64,000 bases of DNA from Patescibacteria group bacterium (GCA_041666325.1 JBAYHC010000004.1:64929-128928), one strand, 5' to 3'; positions 4,308 to 56,100 are shown, numbered from the stretch's first letter. The notes: generated by a model from the sequence alone, not told the origin. Program-made: numbers and translations.

Positions 4308-6686
4308 ATGCAAAATATATTCAAAATTGCCTTGATTTGTGGCGGACCCTCGCTTGAACGAGGCATTTCCCTCAATTCCGCCCGATCGGTCATGGATAAC
4401 TTGGAGGACGACAACATTGAAATCGTCCCGTTCTACCTTGACCAACAGAGAAGAGCTTATCGTCTATCCAAGCCGCAGCTTTACTCTAATACGCCCTCTG
4501 ATTTTGATTTTAAGCTTAGCCGGACCGCCAAGCCACTCAGCCAAATCTCCTTCATTCGCAGACTGAGAGAGTGTGATATCGCCTTCCCTGTCATGCACGG
4601 TACATACGGCGAAGACGGCGGGATTCAACGTTTTCTGGAGAAAAACTCGATTCCATTCGTTGGCTCCGACTCGACTTCATGCAAGCAGGTTTTTGATAAA
4701 TTCAACGCCCACCAACTTCTGGGGGATCTTGATTTCAAGGTTATGCCGACCGCGCTGCTCAAGATCTATCATCATGACCACAAGCAAATTATTGATAAAT
4801 TTTTTGAGGCAAACAAGATTAAGCACGCCGTCGTCAAGCCAGCAAGCGGCGGATCAAGTATGGGTGTTTTTCCGGTCAGTAATACGATCGAGGCGCTCGA
4901 GAGGGCCAACTACCTTTTTTCTAAGCGCATTGACACCAGGGTTGTACTAGAGCCGTTCGCCGAGGGTATAGAATTCACTACCATTGTACTCGAAAATCGT
5001 TTTGGCCAACCGGTGGCTATCTTGCCGACAGAGATTGAGGCTGATTATGCGGAGCACCAAATTTTCGATTTCCGCAAAAAATATTTGCCCACTCGCCACG
5101 TCACCTACCACTGCCCACCTCGTTTTCCCAACAAGCTGATCGAACAAATCCAGATTCAGGCAGAACAAATCTTTTCAGCCACCAAGATGTCTGATTTTGC
5201 ACGATTTGACGGCTGGGTATTATCAGACGGTTCGATCTGGTTTTCTGATTTGAATCCAATTAGTGGCATGGAGCAGCACAGCTTTCTCTTCCAGCAGGCC
5301 TCGCGAGTTGGGCTCAGCCACAGAGGTGTCTTGCGCCATATCGTCAAAAGCGCCTGCCGCCGGCAAAGCATTGACTTTCCGGAGCGCCAACCACAAGCCA
5401 AAACTAGGCGTCGCGAGATCAATATCCTTTTCGGAGGCAACACATCAGAACGCCAAGTCTCCCTCTTAAGCGGTACCAATGCTTGGCTCAAACTTTTACA
5501 ATCGAAAAAATACCTTCCCAAACCGTATCTACTCGATCGGGAAAACAATGTTTGGCAGTTACCTTACAGTCTTGTACTCAATCATACAGTCGAAGAGATT
5601 GCTACGAACTGCAGCAAATTCTCAAAGAGTGAAAGGCGCTTGCGCTATCTGGAGAACAGGGTCAGATTTAGGCTTGGTCTCAGCCCGGAATCGAGCGATG
5701 CGCCGCTCTTTGCACCCCAGAAGCTCTCTCTCAAGAATTTTATCAAGAACTCTTCCTTTGTCTTCAACGCCCTGCATGGCGGAGAGGGTGAGAACGGTAT
5801 CCTGCAGCAACAATTCGAAAAACTTGGCACAAAATACAATGGACCAGATGCCACAGTTTCAAATCTATGTGCTGACAAGGCTCTGACACTCGAAGCAGTC
5901 AAAGCGAGCGGCATTCCCGGCATACATACAGCAAACTACATCACAGTTAGCACCGACGAATTGATCCATTTTGATAATTTTGGACTGAGCAACTACTGGA
6001 AAAAAATACTGAAAGATCTCAAGGCTGACTCTGTCGTGATTAAGCCCAAGTCCGATGGCTGTTCCTCTGGTGTTGCCCACCTTTTCAACCACAAAGACCT
6101 GGCGAACTATATTCGAGCAATCAGGGAGAACTGGCCTTCTATCCCCAAGGGCACGCTCCCTCATCAATTGAATGACATTGAGATGCCGACAGAGCAGCCG
6201 CATGACTTTTTGATCGAAGAATATGTTACTACTGACAAAATCTCTGTTCGAAATAATAAGCTCAACTATCAGCGACGTCGGGGCTGGATCGAGGTAACGA
6301 TTGGTGTGATCGAAAAAGACAACGAGATAATTGCGCTCAACCCAAGCCTGACTGTGGCCTCCGGCGAAATACTTTCGGTTGAAGAGAAATTTCAGGGTGG
6401 TACAGGCATAAACATCACGCCTCCCCCAAAAGAAATTATCAGTCAAAAAGCAATTAACCGGACGAAAGAGTTGATTGGCAAATTATCAAATCGTCTTGGT
6501 ATCAAGGGCTATTCTCGAATCGACGCCTTTCTCCAAGTTGACCGCGGCGATCTCATTATCATTGAAATAAACACTCTCCCAGCACTCACGCCCTCGACCG
6601 TTCTCTTCCATCAGGCCCTAGCCGAAGAAAAGCCTCTCTATCCGCGAGAATTACTCGAACAAATCATCTCAAGTGCCGGATACTAA
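4308..6686 (+). CDS. ddl: tandem-duplicated D-alanine--D-alanine ligase (two complete Ddl / ATP-grasp modules in one 792-aa polypeptide)
   Basis: First module: IALICGGPSLERGISLNSA...HGTYGEDGGIQ...VVKPASGGSSMGV. Second module: INILFGGNTSERQVSLLSGTNA...ALHGGEGENGILQ...VIKPKSDGCSSGVAHL...IIIEINTLPALTPSTV. Both carry Ddl N-terminal, central and ATP-grasp signatures. Confidence 0.8.
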   Translation: MQNIFKIALICGGPSLERGISLNSARSVMDNLEDDNIEIVPFYLDQQRRAYRLSKPQLYSNTPSDFDFKLSRTAKPLSQISFIRRLRECDIAFPVMHGTYGEDGGIQRFLEKNSIPFVGSDSTSCKQVFDKFNAHQLLGDLDFKVMPTALLKIYHHDHKQIIDKFFEANKIKHAVVKPASGGSSMGVFPVSNTIEALERANYLFSKRIDTRVVLEPFAEGIEFTTIVLENRFGQPVAILPTEIEADYAEHQIFDFRKKYLPTRHVTYHCPPRFPNKLIEQIQIQAEQIFSATKMSDFARFDGWVLSDGSIWFSDLNPISGMEQHSFLFQQASRVGLSHRGVLRHIVKSACRRQSIDFPERQPQAKTRRREINILFGGNTSERQVSLLSGTNAWLKLLQSKKYLPKPYLLDRENNVWQLPYSLVLNHTVEEIATNCSKFSKSERRLRYLENRVRFRLGLSPESSDAPLFAPQKLSLKNFIKNSSFVFNALHGGEGENGILQQQFEKLGTKYNGPDATVSNLCADKALTLEAVKASGIPGIHTANYITVSTDELIHFDNFGLSNYWKKILKDLKADSVVIKPKSDGCSSGVAHLFNHKDLANYIRAIRENWPSIPKGTLPHQLNDIEMPTEQPHDFLIEEYVTTDKISVRNNKLNYQRRRGWIEVTIGVIEKDNEIIALNPSLTVASGEILSVEEKFQGGTGINITPPPKEIISQKAINRTKELIGKLSNRLGIKGYSRIDAFLQVDRGDLIIIEINTLPALTPSTVLFHQALAEEKPLYPRELLEQIISSAGY

Positions 6687-7434: not shown

Positions 7435-8172
7435 ATGCAGGTACTGGTCGTAGGCACAGGCAGATCCGATCTGCCCCTTGTCGATACTTTGCTTAACCAT
7501 GGCATTATTGTCTCCATAGCCAGCAGTGACGGAGCGGCCGAAAAGTTCAACAGGGTTAAACCCGACATCGTTTTGGTCACCATTGAAGGACCCCTTCACA
7601 CAGCGGAAACCATCGAGAAAATCGTGGAGATTGATCCTGATGCCAGGATCGTTGCCATTTGCTTTGGAGACTCCAACGATCTTAGAGCAACCATTCGATC
7701 AGGAGCAATCTCTATATTGCTAGCTCCTGTTGACGAGGAACTCTTGCTCAGGCGGCTTGAACAGGTTGCGAAGCGGACTCCGGCCATCGGCGTCGATTCC
7801 CAATCAAAGCCGGGGAGCGGCAAGAAGTTCCTGGTCGTTGACGACGAACGACATATAATTGCCTTAATGAAGCTCAACCTGGAGCTCGCCGGGTTCGAGG
7901 TGGCGACTGCCGCCGATGGCATCGAGGCAGTTGAACGGTATCGGGCGTTCCAGCCTGATGTTGTTTTCATGGATCTGTGTATGCCGCGGATGGACGGCAC
8001 CGAAGCGATTCAGAAGATTATTGAGATGGATCCCGATGCCAGGATTATCTCCTCTTGCGGCATCGAAGAGAACGACCATGCCGCCCAAGCGGCAGGCGCT
8101 CGGGATTCGATTACCAAACCCTTCGGCCCGACTGATCTGATTAACAAGGCCTTAGTCTTGATGAAAGAATAG
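7435..8172 (+). CDS. response regulator with two receiver domains (first degenerate pseudo-receiver, second canonical CheY-like)
   Basis: Second half: KFLVVDDERHII...PDVVFMDLCMPRMDGTEAI...SSCG. First half is receiver-like but has Thr where the phospho-acceptor Asp is expected (DIVLVTIEGP). Confidence 0.7.
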   Translation: MQVLVVGTGRSDLPLVDTLLNHGIIVSIASSDGAAEKFNRVKPDIVLVTIEGPLHTAETIEKIVEIDPDARIVAICFGDSNDLRATIRSGAISILLAPVDEELLLRRLEQVAKRTPAIGVDSQSKPGSGKKFLVVDDERHIIALMKLNLELAGFEVATAADGIEAVERYRAFQPDVVFMDLCMPRMDGTEAIQKIIEMDPDARIISSCGIEENDHAAQAAGARDSITKPFGPTDLINKALVLMKE

Positions 8173-8607: not shown

Positions 8608-9444
8608 TTAAATCGGGGCTGGAGCAGTACGAACAAGATAGTTCTCAATAGAGCCGAGAAAGCTAAGCAGGACAATGCCACAATCAGCAACTCTCGTCTC
8701 GACCTCATACCACACTGCAGGATTGGGGTTAGTAAGCTGTTGCCCAAGGCAAACAGCATATTCCAGCCGCATCGCATCCAGATGAAGAAAGTCTTCGATC
8801 GCACCAGTATCCCGCAACAAAACATCCGGATCAAAGCAATCATGCATATCGTACATGTCCTGAAAACGGAAAAGCACATGGCGGTGAACACTCAGAATAT
8901 CGCCAAGCCAGTCGTACCAAGAATCGCCCCGGATACCGATCCCGCTACCTCGCTGACGGATAAAGTTGCCACGCGCCTTGTCAATCTTGCGAGCAACATA
9001 GCCAATGAGGTCGTCGCGGGAATTACCTGGCAACCCCGGTACGCAATCTATTGACCCCTTAATCAAGCCGCCCTTAGCAATAGCCCAATTGAGATGTCTG
9101 GCATAGCCATGACGAAGAGTATGGAGGCCAGCTTCCAGCTCATCCTCCGTCACAACATGGGGCTCAAATGGAACACCGTGCTCTGCTGCATCGGCACTGA
9201 TTGCACTGATCTGGGCTAAAGCCTCAACAATCTCGAATGAGCGCAATCCCTTGCCCAGGCAAACGACAAGATCAATATCGCTAGCCGGTGAGAGCATGTG
9301 CCGGACAGCCGAACCGGCCAAGATTGCCCAAGAAACATATTCGTTTTGGTCAATCGCCGCTCGCGCCAAATCGATAATCCGATCGAAATCTTCGACAGAT
9401 GGCACCAGTTTGTCCCGAATATCGGAGTATGGAATGAATCGCAT
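8608..9444 (-). CDS. Pol-beta superfamily nucleotidyltransferase domain protein
   Basis: GS-x9-DxD signature LAGSAVRHMLSPASDIDLVVCL; C-terminal helical region containing RHGYARH. Confidence 0.6.
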   Translation of the reverse strand: MRFIPYSDIRDKLVPSVEDFDRIIDLARAAIDQNEYVSWAILAGSAVRHMLSPASDIDLVVCLGKGLRSFEIVEALAQISAISADAAEHGVPFEPHVVTEDELEAGLHTLRHGYARHLNWAIAKGGLIKGSIDCVPGLPGNSRDDLIGYVARKIDKARGNFIRQRGSGIGIRGDSWYDWLGDILSVHRHVLFRFQDMYDMHDCFDPDVLLRDTGAIEDFLHLDAMRLEYAVCLGQQLTNPNPAVWYEVETRVADCGIVLLSFLGSIENYLVRTAPAPI

Positions 9445-9546: not shown

Positions 9547-10326
9547 TTACACGCTAGAACACTGCCACAATGAGGCAAAGATCTGCGAGAAATTGCCAGC
9601 CAAATGCTGATTTGTTATGCGAATACCGACAAGACCGCCGCTCTCGAAGGAAAGTATGCTAACCATATCTCCAACAACATAGATGGCAAACTCTTTGATC
9701 ACTGTGCTCTTTGGCAGTAAACGAAATTCCAGCGCATTGCGCGTCTGGTAGTACTTAGCTTTATCTCTCTCGGTTGCTGAATCATTGATCAGCAATTTTG
9801 TCTTGATGCCTCGTTCAACTTTGAAATGCTTGACCAGATCGTGCCACTCCCGATCGAAAACAAATGACCATTCCTTGCTCCAGACAAACTCATCCCGCAG
9901 AATCAGCATCGTCTCGTTCTCCTTGGCCTGACGCAACATCGATAGATAGATTTTTTTAAGCCCTTCCTGCCCCTCAAAAAAAGTAATTTGAGGAATGGAC
10001 AGATCTTGATTGCCGAGTATTTTGAACTGTTCCTTGAGGTTTTTAACTAGTTGAAACTTCTGATCAATGGCGGCTTTCTCTTTCTCTACCATTTGTTCAA
10101 GCACGTTGTAATCTTCGACAATAAATTGTTTTACTTCGTTCTTGTACGTCGTGCTGACAAGACCCTTGGACTGCAAATCACTCAGAGCGGTGTAGACGCT
10201 GCTTCTAGAAAGATTAGTCTTCCTGGCAATGAGCGAGGCACCGGATGGCGACTTCTCAACCAGAGCAGAGTAGACCAGGGCCTCGTTTTTAGTAAACCCA
10301 AGTTTCTCGATCAATTGTTGAATCAT
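9547..10326 (-). CDS. TrmB-family transcriptional regulator (paralog 1 of 3)
   Basis: N-terminal winged HTH LGFTKNEALVYSALVEKSPSGASLIARKTNLSRSSVYTALSDLQSKGLV plus a C-terminal TrmB-like domain. Confidence 0.65.
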   Translation of the reverse strand: MIQQLIEKLGFTKNEALVYSALVEKSPSGASLIARKTNLSRSSVYTALSDLQSKGLVSTTYKNEVKQFIVEDYNVLEQMVEKEKAAIDQKFQLVKNLKEQFKILGNQDLSIPQITFFEGQEGLKKIYLSMLRQAKENETMLILRDEFVWSKEWSFVFDREWHDLVKHFKVERGIKTKLLINDSATERDKAKYYQTRNALEFRLLPKSTVIKEFAIYVVGDMVSILSFESGGLVGIRITNQHLAGNFSQIFASLWQCSSV

Positions 10327-10403
10327 CTGTCTCCTTTTGTGTTGTCGTAATTGTACGGCACATTGTACATATTGTCAATTAGCAGTATTATTGTGACAGA
10401 TTC

Positions 10404-11849
10404 TTGCAAATGCGCAAGGGAGAAATGGAAATGAAAACGACAGCACCGATAATCCAGCAGCACGAACTGACCACCGCCTGCAATAATGCTTGCGGCTTCT
10501 GCTACAACCCCGAACGATGCCAGAAATCATTCGCTCCACGGCAAGAATCGCGCCGGCAAAACTTGGCAGTGGCCGAAATGTCAGTCGCGCATGGTGTCAT
10601 GGCAGTGTGCCCGACCGGAGGAGAACCGCTCTTAGTTGGCAATCACCTCTTGGATGTGATGGCCATCTACAAACAAGGCGGATGTTACATCAGCGTTAAC
10701 ACCAATGCCAGACTGGCAACACCACGAGTGGCCAAACAGTTGGCACAAGCTGGGCTCAAATCGGCCCTCACCTCGCTTCATGGCGTGGGCAAACTGCACG
10801 ATGAGCTCGTTGGGGCCGACGGCGCATTCGAAGAAACATGGCGCGGCATGGTTACCCTGCGCTCTGAGGGCATCGCCGTAACACCCAACGTTGTCGTCAC
10901 AGCCAAGAACATCGGACGCATCGGCATGGTCGGCGCCTATCTGCTCAAGGAGGGATTCAGTTCGATCGCATTCACCCCCTTCCTGCCATCATGGGGGTCA
11001 GACCATCACCAGGATTTCCTTCTCACCGAGGATCAGCATCAAGCGTATTTCCGGCTTCTGAAGGAAATTGGCGAGCAAGGTGCACGCATCGACTCCACGC
11101 TACCGGTTCCGCCCTGCATTCTGCGCCAGATGCTTCCCTCAACATGGCCAGAATATCTGTCATTCCTGTCTCCGCGCGTTTGCATGGCCGGCCGATCATT
11201 CGGCGTTGTCTCGCCGGACGGCCACTTCCGAGCCTGCATCCAAGCACCGTTCTTCGACCAATTCGGCGGCAATGTTCACACGAACTATGCCCGGAGCTGG
11301 TCACGTGCAAACCGGTGGGCAGAACAAAAACTTCTCCCAGATGAGTGCCGGGACTGTGCCGTCCTCTCAGTCTGCGGAGGAGGCTGCCGCACGAGCAGTC
11401 TATGGCGAAACCAAGGAAGCGTTTGTGGCAAGACCATGTACATGGGTCAGCCACTCACGGCAGCCGAGGCTGAACCATTCAAACAGCGTGTGGTTGTCAA
11501 TGTCGCCGCTGCCGTTAGCTACCGCTGGCAGGATCACCTCAAGTTCCGGGATGAGGGCTGGGGCGTCATCGTCTTCAATGCAAAAAACCAGTCATTCACT
11601 ATTCTGGATCAGTCTGCGCGGACGATGCAACGGACGGGCATAGTCGCATTCGACGACGAAAAAACCGGCCGCGTGCTACAAGCAATGGGCGCAGTCGCAC
11701 CCGAGCACATGCTGGCAATACCGGCATGCACCTGCAACACCAAGGCACTTCCCGCCAACCTGCTCCTACCACGACTGGCAGGTGATCTCGATTCACCACA
11801 TGTAGTCTACCGCTTGCGTGCCGACACCGGCGAACGGTACTACTTCTAG
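10404..11849 (+). CDS. radical SAM / SPASM-domain enzyme with C-terminal PqqD-like (RRE) extension; putative peptide-modifying maturase
   Basis: CNNACGFC (CxxxCxxC), GGEPLL, SPASM cluster CRDCAVLSVCGGGC, and C-terminal FRDEGWGVIVFNAKNQSFTILDQSARTM resembling the PqqD fold. The gene is visibly GC-richer than its flanks. Confidence 0.8.
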   Translation: MQMRKGEMEMKTTAPIIQQHELTTACNNACGFCYNPERCQKSFAPRQESRRQNLAVAEMSVAHGVMAVCPTGGEPLLVGNHLLDVMAIYKQGGCYISVNTNARLATPRVAKQLAQAGLKSALTSLHGVGKLHDELVGADGAFEETWRGMVTLRSEGIAVTPNVVVTAKNIGRIGMVGAYLLKEGFSSIAFTPFLPSWGSDHHQDFLLTEDQHQAYFRLLKEIGEQGARIDSTLPVPPCILRQMLPSTWPEYLSFLSPRVCMAGRSFGVVSPDGHFRACIQAPFFDQFGGNVHTNYARSWSRANRWAEQKLLPDECRDCAVLSVCGGGCRTSSLWRNQGSVCGKTMYMGQPLTAAEAEPFKQRVVVNVAAAVSYRWQDHLKFRDEGWGVIVFNAKNQSFTILDQSARTMQRTGIVAFDDEKTGRVLQAMGAVAPEHMLAIPACTCNTKALPANLLLPRLAGDLDSPHVVYRLRADTGERYYF

Positions 11850-11853
11850 CCCC

Positions 11854-11885
11854 GTGGGCGGCCTTCCGCCCACTTTTTTTAATTA
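11854..11885 (+). terminator. rho-independent terminator
   Basis: GTGGGCGG-ccttc-CGCCCAC followed by TTTTTTTTT. Confidence 0.7.
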
Positions 11886-11936
11886 GTCCAATATTGATTA
11901 AATCCTCATCTTTTGGTATACCATTCCCGGAGGTGA

Positions 11937-12239
11937 ATGCTGATGCTTGACCGTCTGACAGCCGAACGTGCCCAACGGGCACAAAAAGCCACTTCATTTA
12001 CAGTTATCACGAGATCGAAGGGCGATTGGAGTAAAGAAGAGATAAGGGTGATTGTAGATGGCCGTCTTACTGAATGGTTTGGCCACCAGAAGCAGAAAGG
12101 AATTATGATTGGACTTGGCACCATTGACGCCAAGATGATAGAGCGGCGTTTGCTTCATCATAATTTCACTCATCAGATTGTCACTGATCGCACAGCTCTC
12201 CCCTTCGAGCCCCAAGATTATCTTTCCCCCAGCGCATAG
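11937..12239 (+). CDS. hypothetical protein (100 aa) downstream of the radical SAM gene
   Basis: GGAGG RBS 3 nt before the ATG; followed by a GCCGG/CCGGC hairpin plus T-run. Confidence 0.4.
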   Translation: MLMLDRLTAERAQRAQKATSFTVITRSKGDWSKEEIRVIVDGRLTEWFGHQKQKGIMIGLGTIDAKMIERRLLHHNFTHQIVTDRTALPFEPQDYLSPSA

Positions 12240-12260
12240 TCGGTTTGACTGTGCAACCGT

Positions 12261-12283
12261 GCCGGTTCACGCCGGCTTTTTTT
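12261..12283 (+). terminator. rho-independent terminator (overlaps the stop of the convergent minus-strand gene)
   Basis: GCCGG-ttcacg-CCGGC followed by TTTTTTT. Confidence 0.5.
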
Positions 12284-13037
12284 GTTCCTTTGATTGTTTG
12301 CAATAATTGATCATGGCTCCGGAAACGTATTGAGCCAAGCCCGGAGCAATCTTCTCGTAATTAGCGGTGAATCGCTCGTCTGCCACGTACATCTTGGCTA
12401 AGCCTTCAAAAATCTCCAGAGAACAATCATAGAAATTGTTCATGTACCTGTGATACTGGCCAGCTAGCTTGCGCACCTCGGCGTCTTCTGGCGGTACGCC
12501 AGCCTTCATCTTTTCGGCTATCTCGTTGACAATTGCACCACCCTCATCTTTGACGCTTTGGAGCTTTTCTTTGCTCCAGGATTTAACCCGAGCAACAGAC
12601 TGATCGACAGTGTCCTTGCCCCAACGTTGTCTTGCTTCCTCCTGATATTCCTGCACCTGCTCTTTGGTCAGTCCCTCGTATAGGTCTTCGTCTTTCATTC
12701 CTTTTTCTCCTGTCATTTTCTTTATCGTATTCTCAATTGTGTTAATCATCCGATCATAGCGATGTCTCTCGGCTTTAAGCGCTTCCCCGTGGCTGCTGAG
12801 GGCTTGAAGCATGTCAAAATTAGTGTCATCCAGTATCTGCTTAATCTCATCAAGTTTAAATTCTAACTCACGAAAAAAGAGGACCTGCTGCAAGCGCAAA
12901 AGATCTTTTTCCTCGTAGTAGCGATATAAATTCTCGCCAATATGCGATGGCTTGAGCAAACCGATCTGGTCATAGTAGTGGAGCGTTCTCACGCTTACGC
13001 CAGCCATCTTGGCTAACTTGTTGATTGTATATTTCAT
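12267..13037 (-). CDS. MerR-family regulator with TipAS-like C-terminal domain (TipAL/Mta-like)
   Basis: MerR HTH TINKLAKMAGVSVRTLHYYDQIGLLKP, a coiled-coil linker and a C-terminal TipAS-like region. Start taken at MKYTINK rather than the upstream in-frame Met. Confidence 0.75.
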   Translation of the reverse strand: MKYTINKLAKMAGVSVRTLHYYDQIGLLKPSHIGENLYRYYEEKDLLRLQQVLFFRELEFKLDEIKQILDDTNFDMLQALSSHGEALKAERHRYDRMINTIENTIKKMTGEKGMKDEDLYEGLTKEQVQEYQEEARQRWGKDTVDQSVARVKSWSKEKLQSVKDEGGAIVNEIAEKMKAGVPPEDAEVRKLAGQYHRYMNNFYDCSLEIFEGLAKMYVADERFTANYEKIAPGLAQYVSGAMINYCKQSKEQKKPA

Positions 13038-13128
13038 CTTAACAAGAGCATGCACTATAACGTTACGTCATAGTCAAGGGGTAAACAAAAAATATCATCT
13101 GATTACAGAGTATCTCTCTTTGCGCCTT

Positions 13129-16880: not shown

Positions 16881-19292
16881 ATGAATCGGAGCGAGCTAGT
16901 CAGGGCCGTGGCGGACAAGACGGATTTTTCGCTGGTCAAATCAGATAAGTTGGTTACCGCCCTGTGCGACACCATTACAGAAGCTTTAGAACGAGGCGAC
17001 AGAGTCGTCTATTCTAACTTTGGTTCGTTTTACACCGTCCACTATCCCTCAAAGGTCATCATCCATCCCAAGCTTGGCCTGGCTAAAAAAATGATAATGT
17101 TACCAACAAACGTAGCCAAATGGATGCCATCAGAGAATATAAAGAGTTTGGTCAGATCCGGTGAAACCAAGGGTTCGCCAACGCTCCACGCACTAAAATC
17201 AACCAACAAAGAAGTTCCGTCCGGTACCATCGTAGCGAGCAACAACACTACGAGAACGGTTCGCGATGAAACACCAGACTCCGATGAAACCATCGTACCA
17301 ATCCGTCTCTCCAGCCGAAACGCCAAAAACATTGTCGGGGCAGAAATTAACCCCGAACAGAAAAACAAAAATATCAACATCTATGAAGAGTTAATGCAGG
17401 ACGGCAGCAAAGAAGAGACAACTTTTAATGGCGCAATCAGGGTCCCCAAAGACAGAAGCAAGCCATTTTGGAGCAAGCTCTTTAATCGCTCTAAAGACCA
17501 GGAATCATCTACCCCAACAATTGGTCACATAGACAACCAAAACAAAGACACCCAGAAAGTCTCACTGGTTGATTCAGGCGTATTCGATCCCGCCAGCAAA
17601 CCGGAAACTATGGCAGTGCAAGCCACTGCGGAACAAAGCGCTGGAGCCGGTCTTGCCAGTCATCCTCAGGGCGAGACAGTTTCAGTTCAGACAAACAATG
17701 ATCAGACACCCATCGAAAAACCCATTGCGCCATTTCCATCTAATCCGATGGAGATCTCGTATATAGATCTATCCAAAGCGATTGTTCCCAAAGAAATTCT
17801 ACAAAAAATCCCTGAGAAAATTGCTCGCCACTACGGAGTCGTGCCAGTCGAGGAGAACGATAACGAGCTTGTCGTTGCCATGACAGATCCCGAGGACATC
17901 GAGGCGAAAGAGTTAATCAAGAAGTATGCCCAAAAGCCGCTAAAAGTGAGGCTTGGCACACAAGCCGACATCAACCATGTGCTAGACCAATACCAAGGAC
18001 TAGAGTCAGAAGTCCTGGAAGCTATCGAAGAAGTGAACACCGAAGAGGAGGAGAACAACAAAACAGACAACGGCAAGGCAGCAAATCTTACGGTTGCCGA
18101 CGATGCTCCAACAGCAAGGATTGTCAATTCTCTCCTCAGGCGCGCGATTCGAGATAAGGCCTCGGACGTACATATTGAACCACTAGAGAATGAGGTTCAG
18201 GTCCGCTTCAGAATTGATGGCGTTTTACACAAAAAGTTAACTTTACCAAAAGATATTCAGCTGTCAGTCTCCTCCAGGATAAAGATCCTATCCAACATAA
18301 AGATTGACGAGCAACGCTTGCCTCAAGACGGACGATTTAGCATAAGCATCGACAACAGAAGAGTAGATTTTCGTGTCTCCACTCTCCCCACGGCTTACGG
18401 CGAAAAAATTGTCATGAGAATCCTAGATAAGGCCTCTGGAGTTTTAACAGTTGAGCAACTTGGTCTTCAGGGCATGGGCCTCGACGCGCTAACTCAAAAT
18501 CTAGAAAAATCACATGGCATGATCCTGGTGACTGGCCCAACGGGATCAGGTAAAACCACTACTCTTTACGCCCTGATTGATAAGCTTTTTGCCGAGGGCG
18601 TTAATATCGTCACTCTCGAAGACCCGATCGAGTACCAGATGCCAGGCATTAACCAGAGCCAGGTTAACTCCAACATAGACTACACTTTTGCATCAGGATT
18701 GCGCTCAATAGTCAGGCAGGATCCGGATATTATTATGATCGGGGAAATTAGAGACATGGACACAGCCGAGATGGCGGTTCAGGCCGCCCTGACCGGCCAC
18801 GTTGTCCTCTCCACTCTCCACACCAATGATGCTGCCGGCGCAGCACCGCGATTAATAGATATGGGTGTCGAGCCATTTCTTCTTACCTCCTCGGTCAATG
18901 TCATTATCGGACAACGCCTCGCCAGAAAGATATGCGATGAGTGCAAGGAGAAAGATGCGATTCCTGAAGCAGAGATAGAGAGCGTCAAAAAAATTATCGA
19001 CACTATGCCCGAAAAAGAAAAGAAGGAAATGTCCAGCAAGGAGCTTGTTTTCTATAAGGGAAAGGGTTGCAAATCCTGCGACAACACAGGCTATCGTGGC
19101 AGAATCGGCATATTCGAGGTCCTAAGTGTTACCGAGACAGTCAGAGATTTGGTTCTGCGCAAGGTCTCCTCGGGAGAGATTCAGACCAAGGCAATCGAGG
19201 ACGGGATGGTAACAATGATTCAAGACGGAATAATTAAGTCCCTTGAAGGCAAAACCTCGCTGGAAGAGGTTTGGAGAGTAACAAAAGATTAA
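16881..19292 (+). CDS. pilB: type IV pilus assembly ATPase PilB/GspE family with N-terminal HU/IHF-like DNA-binding domain and disordered linker
   Basis: C-terminal Walker A VTGPTGSGKTTTLYA, the GspE N-domain and a tetracysteine motif CDECK...CKSCDNTGYRGR. Residues 1-90 (MNRSELVRAVADKTDFSLVKSDKLVTALCDTITEALERGDRVVYSNFGSFYTV...) align with HU/IHF, followed by a Ser/Thr/Asn/Gln-rich linker of about 190 aa. Confidence 0.85.
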   Translation: MNRSELVRAVADKTDFSLVKSDKLVTALCDTITEALERGDRVVYSNFGSFYTVHYPSKVIIHPKLGLAKKMIMLPTNVAKWMPSENIKSLVRSGETKGSPTLHALKSTNKEVPSGTIVASNNTTRTVRDETPDSDETIVPIRLSSRNAKNIVGAEINPEQKNKNINIYEELMQDGSKEETTFNGAIRVPKDRSKPFWSKLFNRSKDQESSTPTIGHIDNQNKDTQKVSLVDSGVFDPASKPETMAVQATAEQSAGAGLASHPQGETVSVQTNNDQTPIEKPIAPFPSNPMEISYIDLSKAIVPKEILQKIPEKIARHYGVVPVEENDNELVVAMTDPEDIEAKELIKKYAQKPLKVRLGTQADINHVLDQYQGLESEVLEAIEEVNTEEEENNKTDNGKAANLTVADDAPTARIVNSLLRRAIRDKASDVHIEPLENEVQVRFRIDGVLHKKLTLPKDIQLSVSSRIKILSNIKIDEQRLPQDGRFSISIDNRRVDFRVSTLPTAYGEKIVMRILDKASGVLTVEQLGLQGMGLDALTQNLEKSHGMILVTGPTGSGKTTTLYALIDKLFAEGVNIVTLEDPIEYQMPGINQSQVNSNIDYTFASGLRSIVRQDPDIIMIGEIRDMDTAEMAVQAALTGHVVLSTLHTNDAAGAAPRLIDMGVEPFLLTSSVNVIIGQRLARKICDECKEKDAIPEAEIESVKKIIDTMPEKEKKEMSSKELVFYKGKGCKSCDNTGYRGRIGIFEVLSVTETVRDLVLRKVSSGEIQTKAIEDGMVTMIQDGIIKSLEGKTSLEEVWRVTKD

Positions 19293-19437
19293 TAAAGGCA
19301 AAAGTTAGCAAGGCACCAGGCGAAAAAGATGCGGTCAAGAAAGAATGTGGTTCTCTTACGCCTTACGCCTTTCACACTTACGCCCGCCTGCATCGTCTGG
19401 AGCGAAGCGACTGCGGGCAGGCCTTACACCATTTATC
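19290..19437 (+). repeat. intergenic repeat element copy A (AGGCAAAAGTTAGCAAG ... hairpin CGCCCGCCTGCATCGYCTGGAGCGAAGCGACTGCGGGCAGGC ... ACACC) immediately upstream of pilC
   Basis: Near-identical 42-nt hairpin core also at 20697-20739 and 37956-37998; flanking modules are also shared. Confidence 0.6.
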
Positions 19438-20628
19438 ATGCAATACACCTACAGCGCAAAAGATGACAAGGGAAATATTATAAAAGGCACGCTAGAAGCA
19501 GCGTCTGAAATCTCGGCTGCGAACGCTCTCCGCGCCAAGGCCCTTTTCCTGCTGGACCTCAAGACCAAAAAATCCCCAAGAGCGATTTGGCAACGCCGTG
19601 TTCCGCTCAAGGAGAGAATTATCTTTACTCAGCAATTGGAGATTATGGTCAGATCAGGCTTACCGCTCGTTGATGCGATCACATCTCTCCAGGAAGAAAC
19701 CGAAAACAAAAGATTTGCCTCCGAACTCTCGCAAGTTGTGGCTAGTGTGGAAACGGGATCACTTCTTTCGGACGCACTGGCCAAATTCCCCAAAACTTTC
19801 AGCGAAGTATACGTCAACCTGGTACGATCCGGAGAGAAGACGGGCCAACTAGACAAAGTCCTGCAACGTCTGTCTGGTCAACTTCAGAAAGACTTTGAGG
19901 TAAATAGAAAGGTGAAGGGCGCCCTATCCTACCCACTGTTTATTCTCACTGCGCTGATTGGCGTGATGGTTTTGATTCTAAACGCGATTATCCCGCAACT
20001 GCAACAAATATTTGACGATGTTGGTGCCGAGCTTCCCCTTTCTACCCGCATCGTGATTGGGGCTAGTAAATTTACACGAAGCTATGGCGTTTTTACTCTG
20101 GCGTTTATCATTGTGGCAATTGTCTTAATATCCCGTTGGCTCAAAACAGCCCAAGGCAAGAGATTCTTTGATCGTTTTTTACTGAAAATACCGGTTATCG
20201 GACTCTTGCTCAGAAAGTCGTACCTGGCTCGCTTGACTCGTACCTTTGCTGCTTTATCAAACGCCGGCCTACCAGTGCTTGAGGCGCTGCGGGTGTCGAG
20301 CAATGTAATCGGAAACTCCGTCTACGAAAGAGAGGTTGTGAAGGTTGCCGACAGAGTAAAAAATGGGCAAACAATCTCGAAGGCGTTCGGAGAGAGCCCG
20401 CTATTTCCGGCAATGATTATGCAGCTAGCCTCTGTTGGCGAAAAGTCCGGCAACATCGGAGAGGTTTTTGACAGCTTGGCCGACTTCTTCGACAGGGATG
20501 TCGACTCCATAACAACAAATTTATCAACAATGCTTGAACCACTGTTAGTCATTATTCTGGGTGTTGGGATAGCAGCCATCATCATATCTGTTCTGCAGCC
20601 AATCTATGGATTAGTAAATACGATGTAG
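19438..20628 (+). CDS. pilC: type IV pilus inner-membrane platform protein PilC (GspF family)
   Basis: Two GspF repeats and three TM segments. Start placed at MQYTYSAKD because the upstream tool start would translate through the repeat element. Confidence 0.8.
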   Translation: MQYTYSAKDDKGNIIKGTLEAASEISAANALRAKALFLLDLKTKKSPRAIWQRRVPLKERIIFTQQLEIMVRSGLPLVDAITSLQEETENKRFASELSQVVASVETGSLLSDALAKFPKTFSEVYVNLVRSGEKTGQLDKVLQRLSGQLQKDFEVNRKVKGALSYPLFILTALIGVMVLILNAIIPQLQQIFDDVGAELPLSTRIVIGASKFTRSYGVFTLAFIIVAIVLISRWLKTAQGKRFFDRFLLKIPVIGLLLRKSYLARLTRTFAALSNAGLPVLEALRVSSNVIGNSVYEREVVKVADRVKNGQTISKAFGESPLFPAMIMQLASVGEKSGNIGEVFDSLADFFDRDVDSITTNLSTMLEPLLVIILGVGIAAIIISVLQPIYGLVNTM

Positions 20629-20764: not shown

Positions 20765-21706
20765 ATGTTTCTTCCCTTCTCTGAAAATTCAATTGTGGGT
20801 CTTGATATCGGCTTTGAAACGCTGAAGCTTGTCGAGCTCAACAAGGGCGGCGGCAAAGTTTCTCTGCGCGGCTTAAGCAATATTTCTCTACCAGAGCGCA
20901 TACTGGAGCGAGACCACTTCAAGGACAAAAAGGCCACTGCGCAGCTAATTGCAAAAGCTTGCGAGGAGGCAAAACCAGCCTCGATCAAGGCCAGAAAAAT
21001 TGTCTCTGCACTGCCAGAAACGTTTGTCTTCTCCAAGACAATTCAACTACCAAAGATGGAGGAAGGTGAATACGAAAAAGCTGTACCGATGGAAGCAGCT
21101 CAGTTCTTGCCCATACCTATCGAACACGTCTATCTTGACTTCGAGGTGCTCATCACCAGACCAGACCAACCGCTTGCAGACATCCTTATCGTCGCGTCAC
21201 CAAAACGCTTAGTCGAAGAGTACGTCGAGGTTGCCCAGTTGGCAGGATTTGAATTAACTGCCCTTGAACCAAAAGCTCTGGCAGTCGGCAGAGCCCTTTT
21301 GCCGCATGATTTCACTGAAGGAGTACTGATAGCCGAGATTGGGACGGAAATCACCAGAATATCGATTTGGGACGGAAATAAGCTTAGGCTGACAACGACT
21401 GTCAGCGCTGGCAACAACCAGATAGCCGAGAGCACCAAAGCGGGTGATTTTCACCATTTGCTTCCGATTATTGACGAGGTAGTAACCGCCATACGCTATC
21501 ATCAAAATCGCGATTATCAACCAAAACCAATTAGTAAAATTTTGCTATGCGGATCAGGCGCCTGCATTCCAGGCATAGATAAAATATTTGAAAACGAGAG
21601 TAAAATTAAGGTTGAGATTGCTAGGCCACAACTTCACGGCGAAGACGAGCTTGGGCCAGAATACACAACAGCATTCGGCCTGGCGCTAAGAGGAGAATAT
21701 GAATAA
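20765..21706 (+). CDS. pilM: type IV pilus assembly protein PilM (actin-like ATPase fold)
   Basis: IVGLDIGFETLKLVEL N-terminal actin-like start and LLCGSGACIPGIDK C-terminal block. Confidence 0.8.
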   Translation: MFLPFSENSIVGLDIGFETLKLVELNKGGGKVSLRGLSNISLPERILERDHFKDKKATAQLIAKACEEAKPASIKARKIVSALPETFVFSKTIQLPKMEEGEYEKAVPMEAAQFLPIPIEHVYLDFEVLITRPDQPLADILIVASPKRLVEEYVEVAQLAGFELTALEPKALAVGRALLPHDFTEGVLIAEIGTEITRISIWDGNKLRLTTTVSAGNNQIAESTKAGDFHHLLPIIDEVVTAIRYHQNRDYQPKPISKILLCGSGACIPGIDKIFENESKIKVEIARPQLHGEDELGPEYTTAFGLALRGEYE

Positions 21707-53130: not shown

Positions 53131-56100
53131 ATGGACGATCAAGAAAAAAAATTTGTCCACCTCCATGTCCATAGCCATTTCTCCATGCTCGATGGTATGG
53201 GTAAGATTCCCGATCTTGTCGCCAAGGCCAAGGCCGAGGGCCAGCATGCGCTCGCTCTTACCGACCATGGCGTCATGCACGGATCGATTGAATTCTATGA
53301 GGAGTGCGAGAAACAGGGTATCAAGCCATTGATCGGCGTTGAGACCTACGTTGCTGCCAGAACACTGCGGGACAAAACTCCGCGCATTGACGCCCACCCT
53401 TATCACCTTGTACTCATCGCCAAGAACGACGAAGGATATCGAAACTTGCTCAAGCTAACCTCGATTGCACACCTTGAGGGCTATTACTACAAGCCTCGCA
53501 TTGACAAAGAAACTTTGCGCCAGCACTCGAAGGGCGTAATAGGCCTCTCTGCCTGCCTGCAAGGCGAGGTCACGCGAAAATCGCTCGAAAGCCTGGACAA
53601 AGCCCGCGAAGCACTCAAGGAATATTTGGAAATCTTCGAGCCTGGAGATTTTTACCTCGAGGTCCAAAAGCACCCCTCAATTCGAGAGCAGGAAACAGCC
53701 AATGCAAATATCTTTACGCTTGCAAAAGAGTTCAACCTGAAGGTCGTGGCGACGTGCGACACTCATTATGTCAACAAAGAGGACGCCATCGCCCAGGACG
53801 CCCTGATCTGCCTTCAGACAGGCAGGCTCCTGTCAGACACCAATCGGATGTCGATGGCAGACGATGACTATTCTCTGATGACAACCGATCAAATGCTAGC
53901 CAACTTTCCAGACAACCCCGAGGTTATCACCAATACAGTCGAGATTGCAGACAAGTGTAGCCTCACCATGGAGCTAGGTAAGTTTAAATTCCCCGAGTTT
54001 CCATTACCGGAAGGCGAAACTTATGAATCATATTTGCGCAAACTGATTGACGAGAGACTGCCACAAAGAGTCGGGGAAATCACGCCCAGCATGAGAGAGC
54101 GTCTGGAATACGAACTAGATGTTATCAAACAAAAAGGATATCTGGGATACTTTCTCATTGTTCAAGATTTCTTCAACTGGGCCAAGGAGCATGGAATCCC
54201 GACCAATACGAGAGGCTCGGCCGCTGGTTGTTTTGTCTCTTACGCTGTGGGTATAACTCCAAAGCAGCTAAACCCACTGGACTACAATTTGCCCTTCGAG
54301 CGCTTTTTGAACCCTTTCCGACCCTCGGCGCCTGATATTGACGCTGACATTGCTGATTCCGGACGTGACGCCATTATCCAATATGTGTCGGACAGATACG
54401 GCAAAGACCACGTGGCCCAAATTATCACCTTTGGTACCATGGCTGCCCGCATGGCAGTCAGAGACGTCGGCCGAGTGCTCGGCATGACCTATAACGAGGT
54501 CGACATAATAGCCAAACTGATTCCGCCGATGAAAACGACTCTTGATCAGGCGCTCGAAAACATCGCGGAGCTAAAAAGTCTCTACAATTCAGACGGGCAC
54601 GTCAGGCAGTGCATAGACATCGCCAGGAAGCTTGAGGGTGTTGTTCGCCACGCCTCCGTTCACGCTGCCGGCGTCGTGATAGCGCCCGAGGATATCACCA
54701 ATTTCACCCCTGTTATGATGGATGCCAAAAACGAACGGCTTATCACTCAATACGAGATGCACGCGGTAGGTGAGGATGGCGTAGGATTGATCAAGATGGA
54801 CTTTCTGGGATTGGCCAACTTGTCAATCATCCAAAATGCTCTGCGCATCATTCGAAAAACAAGAGGCACCGAGATAAACCTCGATGAAATCCCCCTGGAC
54901 GACAAAAAAGCCTTTGAGCTCCTCTCCCGCGGCGAGACAATCGGCGTCTTCCAGTTGGAAAGTGAGGGCATGAGAAAAAATATCAAGGAGCTTCGCCCGA
55001 CAAGCATTCACGATATCATGGCCATGGTCGCCCTATATCGTCCTGGCCCAATGGCGTTCATCCCTGAGTATATTGCCCGAAAACGCAATCCGGCACGAAT
55101 TGTTTATCCTGACGCCCGCATGGAAAAAATTCTTGCCAAGTCTCTTGGCTTAATCGTCTACCAAGACGATGTTTTGATGATCGCAATCGAGCTTGCCGGA
55201 TACAACTGGCAAGAGGTTGACAAGTTTAGAAAGGCTATCGGCAAAAAGATTATCAAGGAGATGGCCGCGCAAAAAGAGAAATTCTTCAAACAGATCATCG
55301 AGCGAGGCATGCAGCAAGAAGTAGCGACTGAACTCTGGGCACAGATCGAGACATTCGCCGGCTACGGTTTCAACAAGGCCCATGCTGCGAGTTATGGTAT
55401 TGTCGCATATCAAACCGCCTACCTCAAGGCCAACTATCCGCCGGAATACATGTCCGCTCTCATGACCTCGAACAAGGACGACCTTGACAAGCTGGCAATG
55501 GAGATAGAAGAGTGCAAACGAATGGGTATCGAGGTTATGGTTCCCTCCATCAACGAATCCTTCGTTGACTTCGGCGTGGTCAAGGACACAAACAACGTTC
55601 GCTTTGGCCTGTCCGCCATCAAAAACGTTGGCCAGGCCGTTGCCGAAGCAATCGTTGAGGAGAGAAAAAACGGTGGCAACTACAAAGACTTGAAGGATTT
55701 TGTCACCAGGCTCGACTCGAAGGTAATTAATAAAAAGTCTCTGGAATCGCTTGTTATGGCTGGAGCGATGGAGGATCTGGGTGAGCGTGCCGAGCTGCTC
55801 TTCAACATGGAGAAGATCCTCGCTTTTGCAAGCATCTTTCACAAAAATAAATCTGCCGGACAATCATCTCTCTTTGGCGACTCAACCGAAGTGCAGATAG
55901 GCGATATTCCGCTCGAGGCCACAAGACCGGCAGACCAGAAACAGCGCTTGGCCTGGGAGCGGGAGCTGCTTGGCATGTACATCTCCGAACACCCCCTTTC
56001 AAATATCGGGCCCCTGCTTGAACAGGCCCGCACCAAAGCACTGTCAGAGATCAAGGAGAACCTGGAAAACCAATTTGTCAGAGTTTCGGGCATAATCACG

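Follow-up and report, generated by a model that had tools for sequence, protein, structure and literature searches.

What does a radical S-adenosylmethionine (SAM)/SPASM enzyme act upon when no precursor peptide gene adjoins it, and which of its neighbours belong with it? The question is raised by a gene at 10431..11849 on the plus strand of a 64,000-nucleotide stretch of DNA from a Patescibacteria group bacterium (GCA_041666325.1, JBAYHC010000004.1:64929-128928); this whole stretch is the window referred to below, and positions are counted from its first letter. An earlier reading of the same DNA, called here the sequence-only reading, had grouped the enzyme with an orphan open reading frame (ORF) and a TipAS-type regulator downstream as a possible peptide- or protein-modification module, and it did not mention the gene that lies directly upstream. 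It is this upstream gene, divergent from that of the enzyme and encoding a TrmB-like regulator, which turned out to be the conserved partner. We propose, on evidence that leaves us evenly divided between acceptance and doubt, that the enzyme is a regulator-controlled, monocistronic member of a lineage descended from peptide maturases that carry their RRE (the recognition element of enzymes for RiPPs, peptides that ribosomes synthesize and that are modified post-translationally) at the C-terminus, and that its substrate, held under a remodelled cap, is probably a peptide or protein whose gene lies elsewhere in the genome.

The Radical SAM/SPASM Enzyme and Its Family

The reading frame is open from 10404 to 11849 on the plus strand and contains the motifs CNNACGFC, TGGEPLL and CRDCAVLSVCGGGC, so that the domains and motifs of the 481-residue radical SAM/SPASM protein described previously are confirmed, and its length is not: the likely start is the ATG at 10431, which gives 472 residues plus the stop codon. 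This start was chosen because the database record MFA5927593.1, the ribosome-binding site AAGGGAG preceding the ATG, and all of the homologues, every one of which begins with MKT or MNT, agree on it. The window protein is identical to MFA5927593.1, which comes from a Patescibacteria metagenome-assembled genome on a 193-kb contig. Profile searches recovered Radical_SAM (Pfam PF04055, E value 5e-17, 63 bits vs. a cutoff of 29.5) and SPASM (TIGR04085, 42.6 bits vs. a cutoff of 27, over residues 260-336 of the 481-residue ORF), and, in the downstream regulator, TipAS (PF07739), so that three of the families named in the sequence-only reading were found above cutoff or at low E value.

The CX3CX2C motif (C17, C21 and C24; 10479..10502, plus strand) lies inside the Pfam Radical_SAM match, is invariant in 51 homologues and would bind the SAM-cleaving [4Fe-4S] cluster; because it begins as early as residue 17, the enzyme has no N-terminal recognition domain. 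The GGE-type SAM-binding motif T62-G63-G64-E65 is likewise invariant among these 51 sequences. The SPASM auxiliary-cluster region (11181..11411, plus strand) reads C251-X12-G-X4-C269 followed by C306-X2-C309-X5-C315-X3-C319, and with C332 the window protein holds all seven of the SPASM cysteines. In the 51-member alignment, the three radical SAM cysteines and C60, C229, C251, C269, C306, C309, C315 and C319 are invariant, with C60 an extra cysteine beside the GGE motif and C229 another one upstream of C251; the seventh canonical SPASM cysteine, C332 in the window protein, is not kept in most family members. Directly 3' of the stop codon lies an intrinsic terminator (11854..11880, plus strand), with an 8-bp stem of seven G-C pairs at 11854-11873 followed by a run of seven T (TTTTTTT), and the gene appears to be transcribed alone. 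It is the only one of its kind in the window, where no second CX3CX2C ORF was found. A defence or phage origin was also considered and rejected, given that PADLOC and PHROGs yielded generic radical SAM core matches only.

The full-length AlphaFold2 model (mean predicted local distance difference test score, pLDDT, of 94.4; predicted template modelling score, pTM, of 0.92) superposes on radical SAM structures, which have a partial TIM-barrel fold, and its nearest solved structures by Foldseek are anSME, SkfB, SuiB and PqqE (E values from 1e-14 to 8e-12 over ~300-385 aligned columns), with the match to anSME 4k37 at 1e-14; a sequence-profile search of the PDB agrees with this. Together with the SPASM maturases anSME, SuiB, CteB, PqqE and MftC and the twitch enzyme SkfB, the window enzyme has the N-terminal partial TIM-barrel, the CX3CX2C and GGE motifs and, with the SPASM maturases, the CX12GX4C...CX2CX5CX3C region, and these enzymes are its best structural and PDB sequence matches. 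Unlike them, it has its recognition-like domain at the C-terminus and in degenerate form, its family has the seventh SPASM cysteine unconserved and C60 as an invariant extra, and precursor, sulfatase and cofactor-pathway genes are not linked to it. None of the NCBIfam equivalogs came near its cutoff, the best being NirJ2 with 76 vs. 500 bits, followed by figures such as 63 vs. 381 for PqqE, 72 vs. 265 for MftC, 57-77 vs. 500-515 for NirJ and 66 vs. 500 for AhbD. The anSME equivalog TIGR03942 scored 41 bits against a cutoff of 349, and no sulfatase gene was present in any neighbourhood examined, nor were pqq, mft or heme genes found nearby; anSME is simply the nearest solved fold.

A search of 5.8 billion proteins returned ~65 full-length homologue clusters (468-520 residues, 96-100% query coverage, 38-59% identity), of which ~50 are patescibacterial (Falkow-, Moran-, Uhr- and Paceibacteria; 44-59% identity) and ~14 archaeal (Nano- and Woesearchaeota plus one Bathyarchaeota; 38-42% identity); beyond this full-length family, identity falls sharply to ~30%. 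The gene occurs in just 13 out of 185,579 species-representative genomes. The family is rare, uncharacterised, and restricted to Patescibacteria (the Candidate Phyla Radiation, CPR), DPANN archaea and Bathyarchaeota, and no relevant literature on it in CPR or DPANN was found. Its patchy distribution across these two groups suggests an old lateral spread. In all of the DPANN loci and in two bacterial ones, a second radical SAM gene adjoins that of the SPASM enzyme and forms an operon with it (L005:7472-8407, L007:7471-8400, L019:9453-10418, L004:5006-5983 and L010:1985-2965); its product, of ~310-325 residues, is twitch-like, with the CX3CX2C motif and three invariant C-terminal cysteines, and the operon suggests a two-step radical pathway in those lineages.

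The TrmB-like Regulator and Its Candidate Operator

The gene directly upstream of that of the enzyme and divergent from it, at 9547..10326 on the minus strand, encodes a TrmB/TrmBL2-like winged-helix regulator of 259 residues (PF01978 TrmB, E value 1.6e-15, 57 bits vs. a cutoff of 25.6), whose best relative in the PDB is TrmBL2 5bqt (E value 2.5e-4, residues 3-207). All 11 of the Patescibacteria loci that have the enzyme gene and upstream DNA encode an orthologue of this regulator (256-289 residues, 260-326 bits) directly upstream of the enzyme gene and in divergent orientation, and five further metagenome loci bring the count to 16 out of 16 bacterial loci, these being the loci with readable upstream DNA that were found through either the enzyme or the operator described below. 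In archaea, a weaker TrmB-like gene occupies this position in two Woesearchaeota loci, a TrmB-like gene is 2.8 kb off in the Nanoarchaeota locus, and the Bathyarchaeota locus has none. The regulator matches Thermococcus TrmBL2 in its N-terminal TrmB winged helix, its length and its overall alignment; unlike TrmBL2 and TrmB, it is bacterial, and a candidate 7-4-7 palindromic operator overlaps its own promoter. A Pfam scan detected no sugar-binding domain in it.

This candidate operator, TGTCGTA-ATTG-TACGGCA at 10343..10360, carries one mismatch in the window relative to the consensus TGTCGTA-N4-TACGACA, and it belongs to a shared element, GTTGTCGTAATTGTACGACA-nn-TTGWACA, that is near-invariant across ten bacterial intergenic regions, even though the GC content of these ten loci ranges over 30-53% and their enzymes are 51-56% identical to the window protein. 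Each locus has exactly one copy of the palindrome, just upstream of its trmB-like orthologue, and zero are expected by chance in the window. A second palindrome of this type with one mismatch (TGTCGGACAGATACGGCA) occurs at 54386-54403, inside the coding region of dnaE (DNA polymerase III alpha), and is probably there by chance.

The trmB-like gene has a sigma-70-type promoter on the minus strand at 10350..10378 (TTGACA, a 17-nucleotide spacer and TACAAT, matching the consensus at 11 of 12 positions), the -10 box of which sits within the operator, and the same hexamers are found in L031. A candidate promoter for the enzyme gene lies on the plus strand at 10364..10392 (TTGTAC/TGTACA, a spacer of 16-17 nucleotides and TATTAT, matching at 9 of 12 positions) and starts 4 nucleotides past the operator. 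The TTGWAC hexamer next to the operator is kept in ten out of ten loci; it presumably serves the promoter of the enzyme gene, but it could instead belong to an extended operator. The conserved palindrome over its own -10 box is strong circumstantial evidence that the TrmB-like protein would bind this operator, and we infer that it would repress its own gene and would also control the divergent one. We thus picture a two-gene unit, made of an autoregulated TrmB/TrmBL2-like repressor and a divergent, monocistronic radical SAM/SPASM enzyme with an operator-promoter region in common, in which the regulator would set when the enzyme is produced. On the other side of the regulator gene, 103 nucleotides downstream of it and on the same strand, a gene at 8608-9444 encodes a 278-residue protein with weak similarity to nucleotidyltransferases (Polbeta/MntA-like), which may be co-transcribed with the trmB-like gene; it was rejected as a conserved neighbour, having no counterpart in the related loci.

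The regulator family is larger than that of the enzyme, with 161 matches at E values of 1e-10 or below, of which probably at least 23 are on the same contig as a match to the enzyme. On two long contigs that lack the enzyme, L030 and L031, this operator has opposite it a conserved 163-residue cupin-like protein encoded on the minus strand in the slot of the enzyme gene (L030:4443-4934 and L031:4468-4959), which is also present in L085, L098, L108 and L142. This protein, divergent from the trmB-like orthologue, has an HPHPWP motif, weak Cupin_2/PMI matches and no solved relative. An exact-match scan of metagenomes for the operator gave 12 genuine loci among 120 matches, most of the matches being due to chance, and in these 12 the operator faces the radical SAM enzyme five times, the cupin-like protein four times, an SDR-family (short-chain dehydrogenase/reductase) oxidoreductase once (L147), and a 253-residue protein of no known type once (L121), with the remaining one cut by the contig end. 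Since the operator faces different genes, the cargo of the cassette is interchangeable, even as the bacterial enzyme itself accompanies this regulator. In addition, a small CxxC...CPxC ORF, zinc-ribbon- or rubredoxin-like, stands between the operator and the enzyme gene in 3 of the 16 bacterial loci: the proteins of L011:7771-7989 and L110:239-457 have 72 residues and are 58% identical to each other, and that of L001:5745-6008, with 87 residues, is unrelated to them. These proteins could be electron donors or substrates; none is encoded in that position in the window.

The C-Terminal Domain and the Sister Clade

The sequence-only reading had pointed to a C-terminal extension of about 120 residues resembling PqqD. 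A conserved extension, unusual among SPASM enzymes, does exist, and it is somewhat longer, at ~135 residues (338-472; 11442..11846, plus strand), with an RRE-like core of beta-sheet and helix, an invariant NQSF strand, a variable linker, an LLPRLA motif and a terminal hairpin. Modelled alone, these 135 residues reach a pLDDT of 95.5. The likeness to PqqD (PF05402), for its part, could not be upheld by sequence, an outcome that the sequence-only reading had itself set down as refuting: the isolated C-terminal 145 residues had zero matches in Pfam at E values up to 10, a PDB profile search with the domain found nothing, and hhalign, with two proteins whose N-terminal PqqD domains are Pfam-positive and a profile of 26 N-terminal RREs as its targets, gave a non-significant probability below 2%. 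Foldseek of the C-terminal model against the PDB likewise gave nothing significant. Given these negative outcomes, the RRE-like interpretation stands at the fold level only, and weakly so. With respect to PqqD and the RREs of TbiB1, PbtF and TfuB1, the domain lacks sequence-profile similarity and has shorter helices, extra strands and the terminal hairpin. RREs in radical SAM enzymes are generally N-terminal, and the proteusin epimerases of the PoyD type have been described with a C-terminal RRE, as proposed here for the window enzyme, although they contain the radical SAM cluster only, with no SPASM domain (PMC8326336); we saw no sequence relationship between them and the window enzyme.

It was in a sister clade, P0068-P0072, where a clearer C-terminal counterpart was found. 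These proteins of ~440 residues are 29-31% identical to the window protein over ~80% of its length (31% for P0071) and have the same domain order, no N-terminal RRE and the same 'LRxxDEGFG' start of the C-terminal domain. This domain aligns to the first strands of the window domain (by BLAST up to residue 386, and by hhalign with a probability of 92.6% and an E value of 4.7e-7), beyond which it extends into a longer, helical, winged-helix-like segment that matches helix-turn-helix families weakly. Unlike the window clade, the sister clade has this longer helical C-terminus, retains the last SPASM cysteine and lacks the final ~50 residues, namely the linker, the LLPRLA motif and the hairpin tail.

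In all three sister-clade loci retrieved, a small Cys-rich ORF directly follows the radical SAM gene: one of 40 residues at L023:6336-6458 (ending ...LACYCHCACACHVTG), one of 51 at L027:1663-1818 (ending ...CDAGMCDAETGGCDSSCQCDGGG) and one of 52 at L028:2551-2709 (ending ...CDHCDCQCGGCQNSRG). Downstream of it, HExxH-motif proteins of 217-246 residues are encoded at L023:6532-7272 and L028:2750-3418, and L028 also carries a C39 peptidase gene upstream. To judge by their gene content, these three loci look like unannotated sacti- or ranthipeptide-like RiPP clusters with the recognition domain of the maturase at the C-terminus, and the architecture of the clade together with its Cys-rich ORFs therefore indicates that SPASM peptide maturases with a C-terminal recognition domain exist. 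In contrast, the window clade has neither the Cys-rich ORF nor the HExxH protein nor the C39 peptidase, and has the TrmB-like regulator instead. Comparison of the two clades would make the window family a derived offshoot that has lost the long helices and the adjacent precursor and gained ~50 residues.

The Substrate of the Enzyme

That no precursor peptide was obvious in the window had been said before, and this still holds: scans for Cys-rich small ORFs, both nearby and across the 64 kb, gave nothing convincing. The broader search for small ORFs conserved around the homologues, which the sequence-only reading had suggested, was also negative, given that an all-against-all comparison of 1,581 small ORFs from 16 loci with the enzyme gene left no conserved one of at least 15 residues outside coding shadows within 2.5 kb on either side; the small-ORF clusters that did appear were rejected as precursors, being only frame-shadows of the enzyme or trmB-like genes or translated operator DNA. 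In the window, the intergenic spaces of the locus are filled by the promoters and the terminator. No linked leader peptidase or exporter was found, the recurrent neighbours being only the TrmB-like gene and, in some loci, the second radical SAM gene. As no precursor gene adjoins the enzyme, its substrate is not a dedicated adjacent precursor.

We favour as substrate a peptide or protein whose gene is located at some other place in the genome. The family most likely descended from SPASM peptide maturases with a peptide-recognizing RRE at the C-terminus, a domain that would have been remodelled in the window clade by the loss of the canonical helices and the gain of extra strands and of the invariant terminal beta-hairpin. 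The chemistry would follow the usual course: the cluster of the CX3CX2C motif would cleave SAM reductively to the 5'-deoxyadenosyl radical, this radical would take a hydrogen atom from the substrate, which would sit between the barrel and the C-terminal cap, and the two auxiliary clusters would handle the remaining electron. It counts in favour of this proposal that the closest solved structures to the model are all peptide- or protein-modifying SPASM/twitch enzymes. Several facts weigh against it: the lack of a conserved small ORF is unusual for a peptide maturase, the scan of the whole window found no Cys-rich small ORF with a ribosome-binding site or conservation, and the chemistry itself is not readable from sequence.

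The strongest competitor, possible and yet in our opinion unlikely, is a small-molecule substrate, with the enzyme being an oxygen-independent radical SAM oxidoreductase, epimerase or similar acting on a metabolite, for instance a derivative of a sugar; what was once the RRE could then serve as a lid, the TrmB-type control could be ligand-sensing, and the enzyme could be an analogue of the cupin-like and SDR enzymes found in the same slot. The degenerate state of the RRE agrees with it, and so do the high sequence ranks of SPASM/twitch enzymes with non-peptide substrates (NirJ2, AhbD and BlsE 7vob). Three further observations suit it and at the same time count against a peptide or protein substrate: no adjacent precursor is conserved across 16 loci with the enzyme gene, the cargo is swappable (the radical SAM enzyme five times, the cupin-like protein four plus two, the SDR protein once and the 253-residue protein once), and P0130, a distant relative, has a LysR regulator for its partner, this pairing and the cassette facing cupin-like or SDR genes together being a better fit to small-molecule metabolism. 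On the other hand, the nearest relatives whose context is informative are peptide maturases, conservation within the C-terminal domain is highest in the strand with which RREs bind peptides, and the swapping could simply reflect insertion beside a common regulator. We know of no RRE-bearing SPASM enzyme acting on a small molecule, and the TrmBL2-type regulator that its partner resembles is not known to have a sugar-binding domain. A related conjecture, which we find doubtful, is that the peptide-maturase scaffold was repurposed in CPR and DPANN symbionts for oxygen-independent work on a non-peptide substrate, with the recognition domain now a closed cap and with the radical SAM, cupin-like and SDR proteins as interchangeable redox cargo that may carry out the same or related steps.

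It is very improbable that the enzyme acts upon the TrmB-like protein or needs it as an obligate protein partner, instead of or besides being regulated by it. The strict adjacency in the 16 bacterial loci would suit such a role, as would a conservation of the regulator (about 50-66% identity) similar to that of the enzyme; against it, the regulator family is the larger of the two and also occurs with other cargo, a TrmB-like gene is missing from the Bathyarchaeota locus and lies 2.8 kb away in the Nanoarchaeota one, and a near-invariant palindrome over its own -10 box is what is expected of an ordinary autoregulated DNA-binding protein.

Lower still is the chance that the enzyme modifies itself, with its own tail as a fused core peptide altered in cis, as in the borosin methyltransferases with fused cores. 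The invariant C-terminal tail, VVYRLRADTGERYYF-COOH (11805..11846, plus strand), is modelled as a beta-hairpin of two strands, and R463, D465, T466, G467 and E468 are invariant in the 51-member alignment; the motif LRADTGER followed by an aromatic residue ends at the exact C-terminus across the family, reading LRADTGERYFF-COOH in the window protein. What draws attention to the tail is precisely this constant position, after a variable linker that joins it to the RRE-like domain, together with the sister clade, which lacks the last ~50 residues and has a separate precursor gene instead, and with an ending in Glu-x-Tyr/aromatic that presumably resembles the target sites of PqqA and MftA. However, an exhaustive search of 1.84 billion representative proteins with a profile built from the C-terminal domain gave only 17 matches, most of them family members or fragments thereof. 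Three of the 17 are distant relatives, among which the full-length P0130, with 543 residues, has the motif (VYCTRTDTAGRFFC) internally with ~35 further residues beyond it, and another three are PQQ-like (pyrroloquinoline quinone-like) beta-propeller repeat proteins (P0133-P0135), with four or five matches to the tail through their blade motif, kVYCLNADTGAKIW. It follows that the tail is a structural beta-hairpin of a common kind, and the idea of a fused core is weakened accordingly; moreover, in the predicted models the tail is folded within the domain at pLDDT above 90 even without the catalytic core, and a single-turnover enzyme would be costly.

Downstream Neighbours and GC Content

The 100-residue ORF that follows the enzyme gene (11937-12239) lies 87 nucleotides past its stop codon and does have the strong ribosome-binding site reported for it, GGAGGTG; because of the strong terminator right after that stop codon, it is probably not co-transcribed with the enzyme. 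It has no homologues among the 5.8 billion proteins or in the 22 related loci, and no Cys-rich or repetitive core. Next to it, at 12267-13055 on the minus strand, the TipAL-like regulator has the MerR and TipAS domains attributed to it (PF13411, E value 3e-18; PF07739, E value 3e-36), but its orientation had been misjudged: it is convergent, tail to tail, with the enzyme gene rather than divergent, and it is the last gene of the minus-strand dnaX-dnaB string. It has no homologues in the 22 related loci either, and with neither neighbour conserved, the module of enzyme, orphan ORF and TipAL-like regulator falls away. A classical RiPP cluster, in which the 100-residue ORF or some other local small ORF is the precursor and the TipAL-like regulator senses the product, is thus scarcely credible and, to judge from this non-conservation, already largely refuted: in its favour are the ribosome-binding site, the short distance to the enzyme gene and the binding of thiopeptide-type antibiotics by TipAS domains, and against it are the intervening terminator, the lack of homologues and of a Cys-rich or repetitive core in the ORF, and a TipAL-like gene that is convergent, trails dnaX-dnaB and is absent from every related locus.

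The enzyme gene is indeed GC-richer than its surroundings, as had been noticed: the sliding-window GC content is 0.57-0.59 across it vs. ~0.47 nearby, and it ranks first among 24 window genes in GC at first and second codon positions (GC12, 0.543 vs. a mean of 0.461 ± 0.035 for the others) and at third positions (GC3, 0.630 vs. 0.523 ± 0.041). The meaning given to this excess, a recent horizontal acquisition, does not follow, given that the enzyme gene is above its locus in all 11 of the other bacterial loci, by 3-11 percentage points, and that an excess which is family-wide is no mark of recent acquisition. The GC content of the gene tracks that of its host over a range of 0.33 to 0.60, and the co-inherited trmB-like gene, with a GC12 of 0.396, is among the lowest of the 24 window genes checked. 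The excess largely reflects the amino-acid and codon composition of the family, and the GC3 excess in the window genome, of +2.6 standard deviations, is not fully explained by this family property.

Other Genes of the Window

Three other places in the window deserve to be recorded in their own right. At 16881-19292 on the plus strand, a type IV pilus/type II secretion ATPase of 803 residues with MshEN and T2SSE domains has as its N-terminus an HU/IHF-type Bac_DNA_binding domain (PF00216, E value 1.3e-14, residues 1-91), which is an odd fusion, and it is followed by PilC-like (19345-20628) and PilM-like (20765-21706) genes. At 4308-6686, on the plus strand, a 792-residue protein contains two D-Ala-D-Ala ligase units, with Dala_Dala_lig_N and Dala_Dala_lig_C twice each, an apparent tandem Ddl fusion. 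Lastly, two genes upstream of the trmB-like gene, at 7435-8172 on the plus strand, a 245-residue protein has two receiver-type Response_reg domains and no output domain.

Conclusions

New peptide and cofactor chemistry has one of its main sources in radical SAM/SPASM enzymes, the function of which is usually read from an adjacent precursor gene. The present family breaks this rule, having a confidently predicted fold, strong conservation between ultra-small bacteria and archaea, and a tight tie to a regulator, with a substrate that is not linked. What is new here is the combination of a SPASM maturase-like enzyme, a degenerate C-terminal RRE, a terminal hairpin, no linked precursor, and a conserved TrmB-like operator cassette. 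For annotation, the lesson is to leave the orphan ORF and the TipAS regulator out of any biosynthetic cluster drawn around the enzyme.

Should the substrate be a protein encoded in trans, the family would provide a new post-translational modification for organisms whose biochemistry has hardly been studied; should it be a small molecule, the family would exemplify an RRE domain recycled for another purpose. In either case, the conserved operator and its regulator form a pair that can be tested directly, one of only a few such pairs in Patescibacteria, and the swappable cargo of the cassette hints at a simple route by which reduced genomes may exchange regulated functions.

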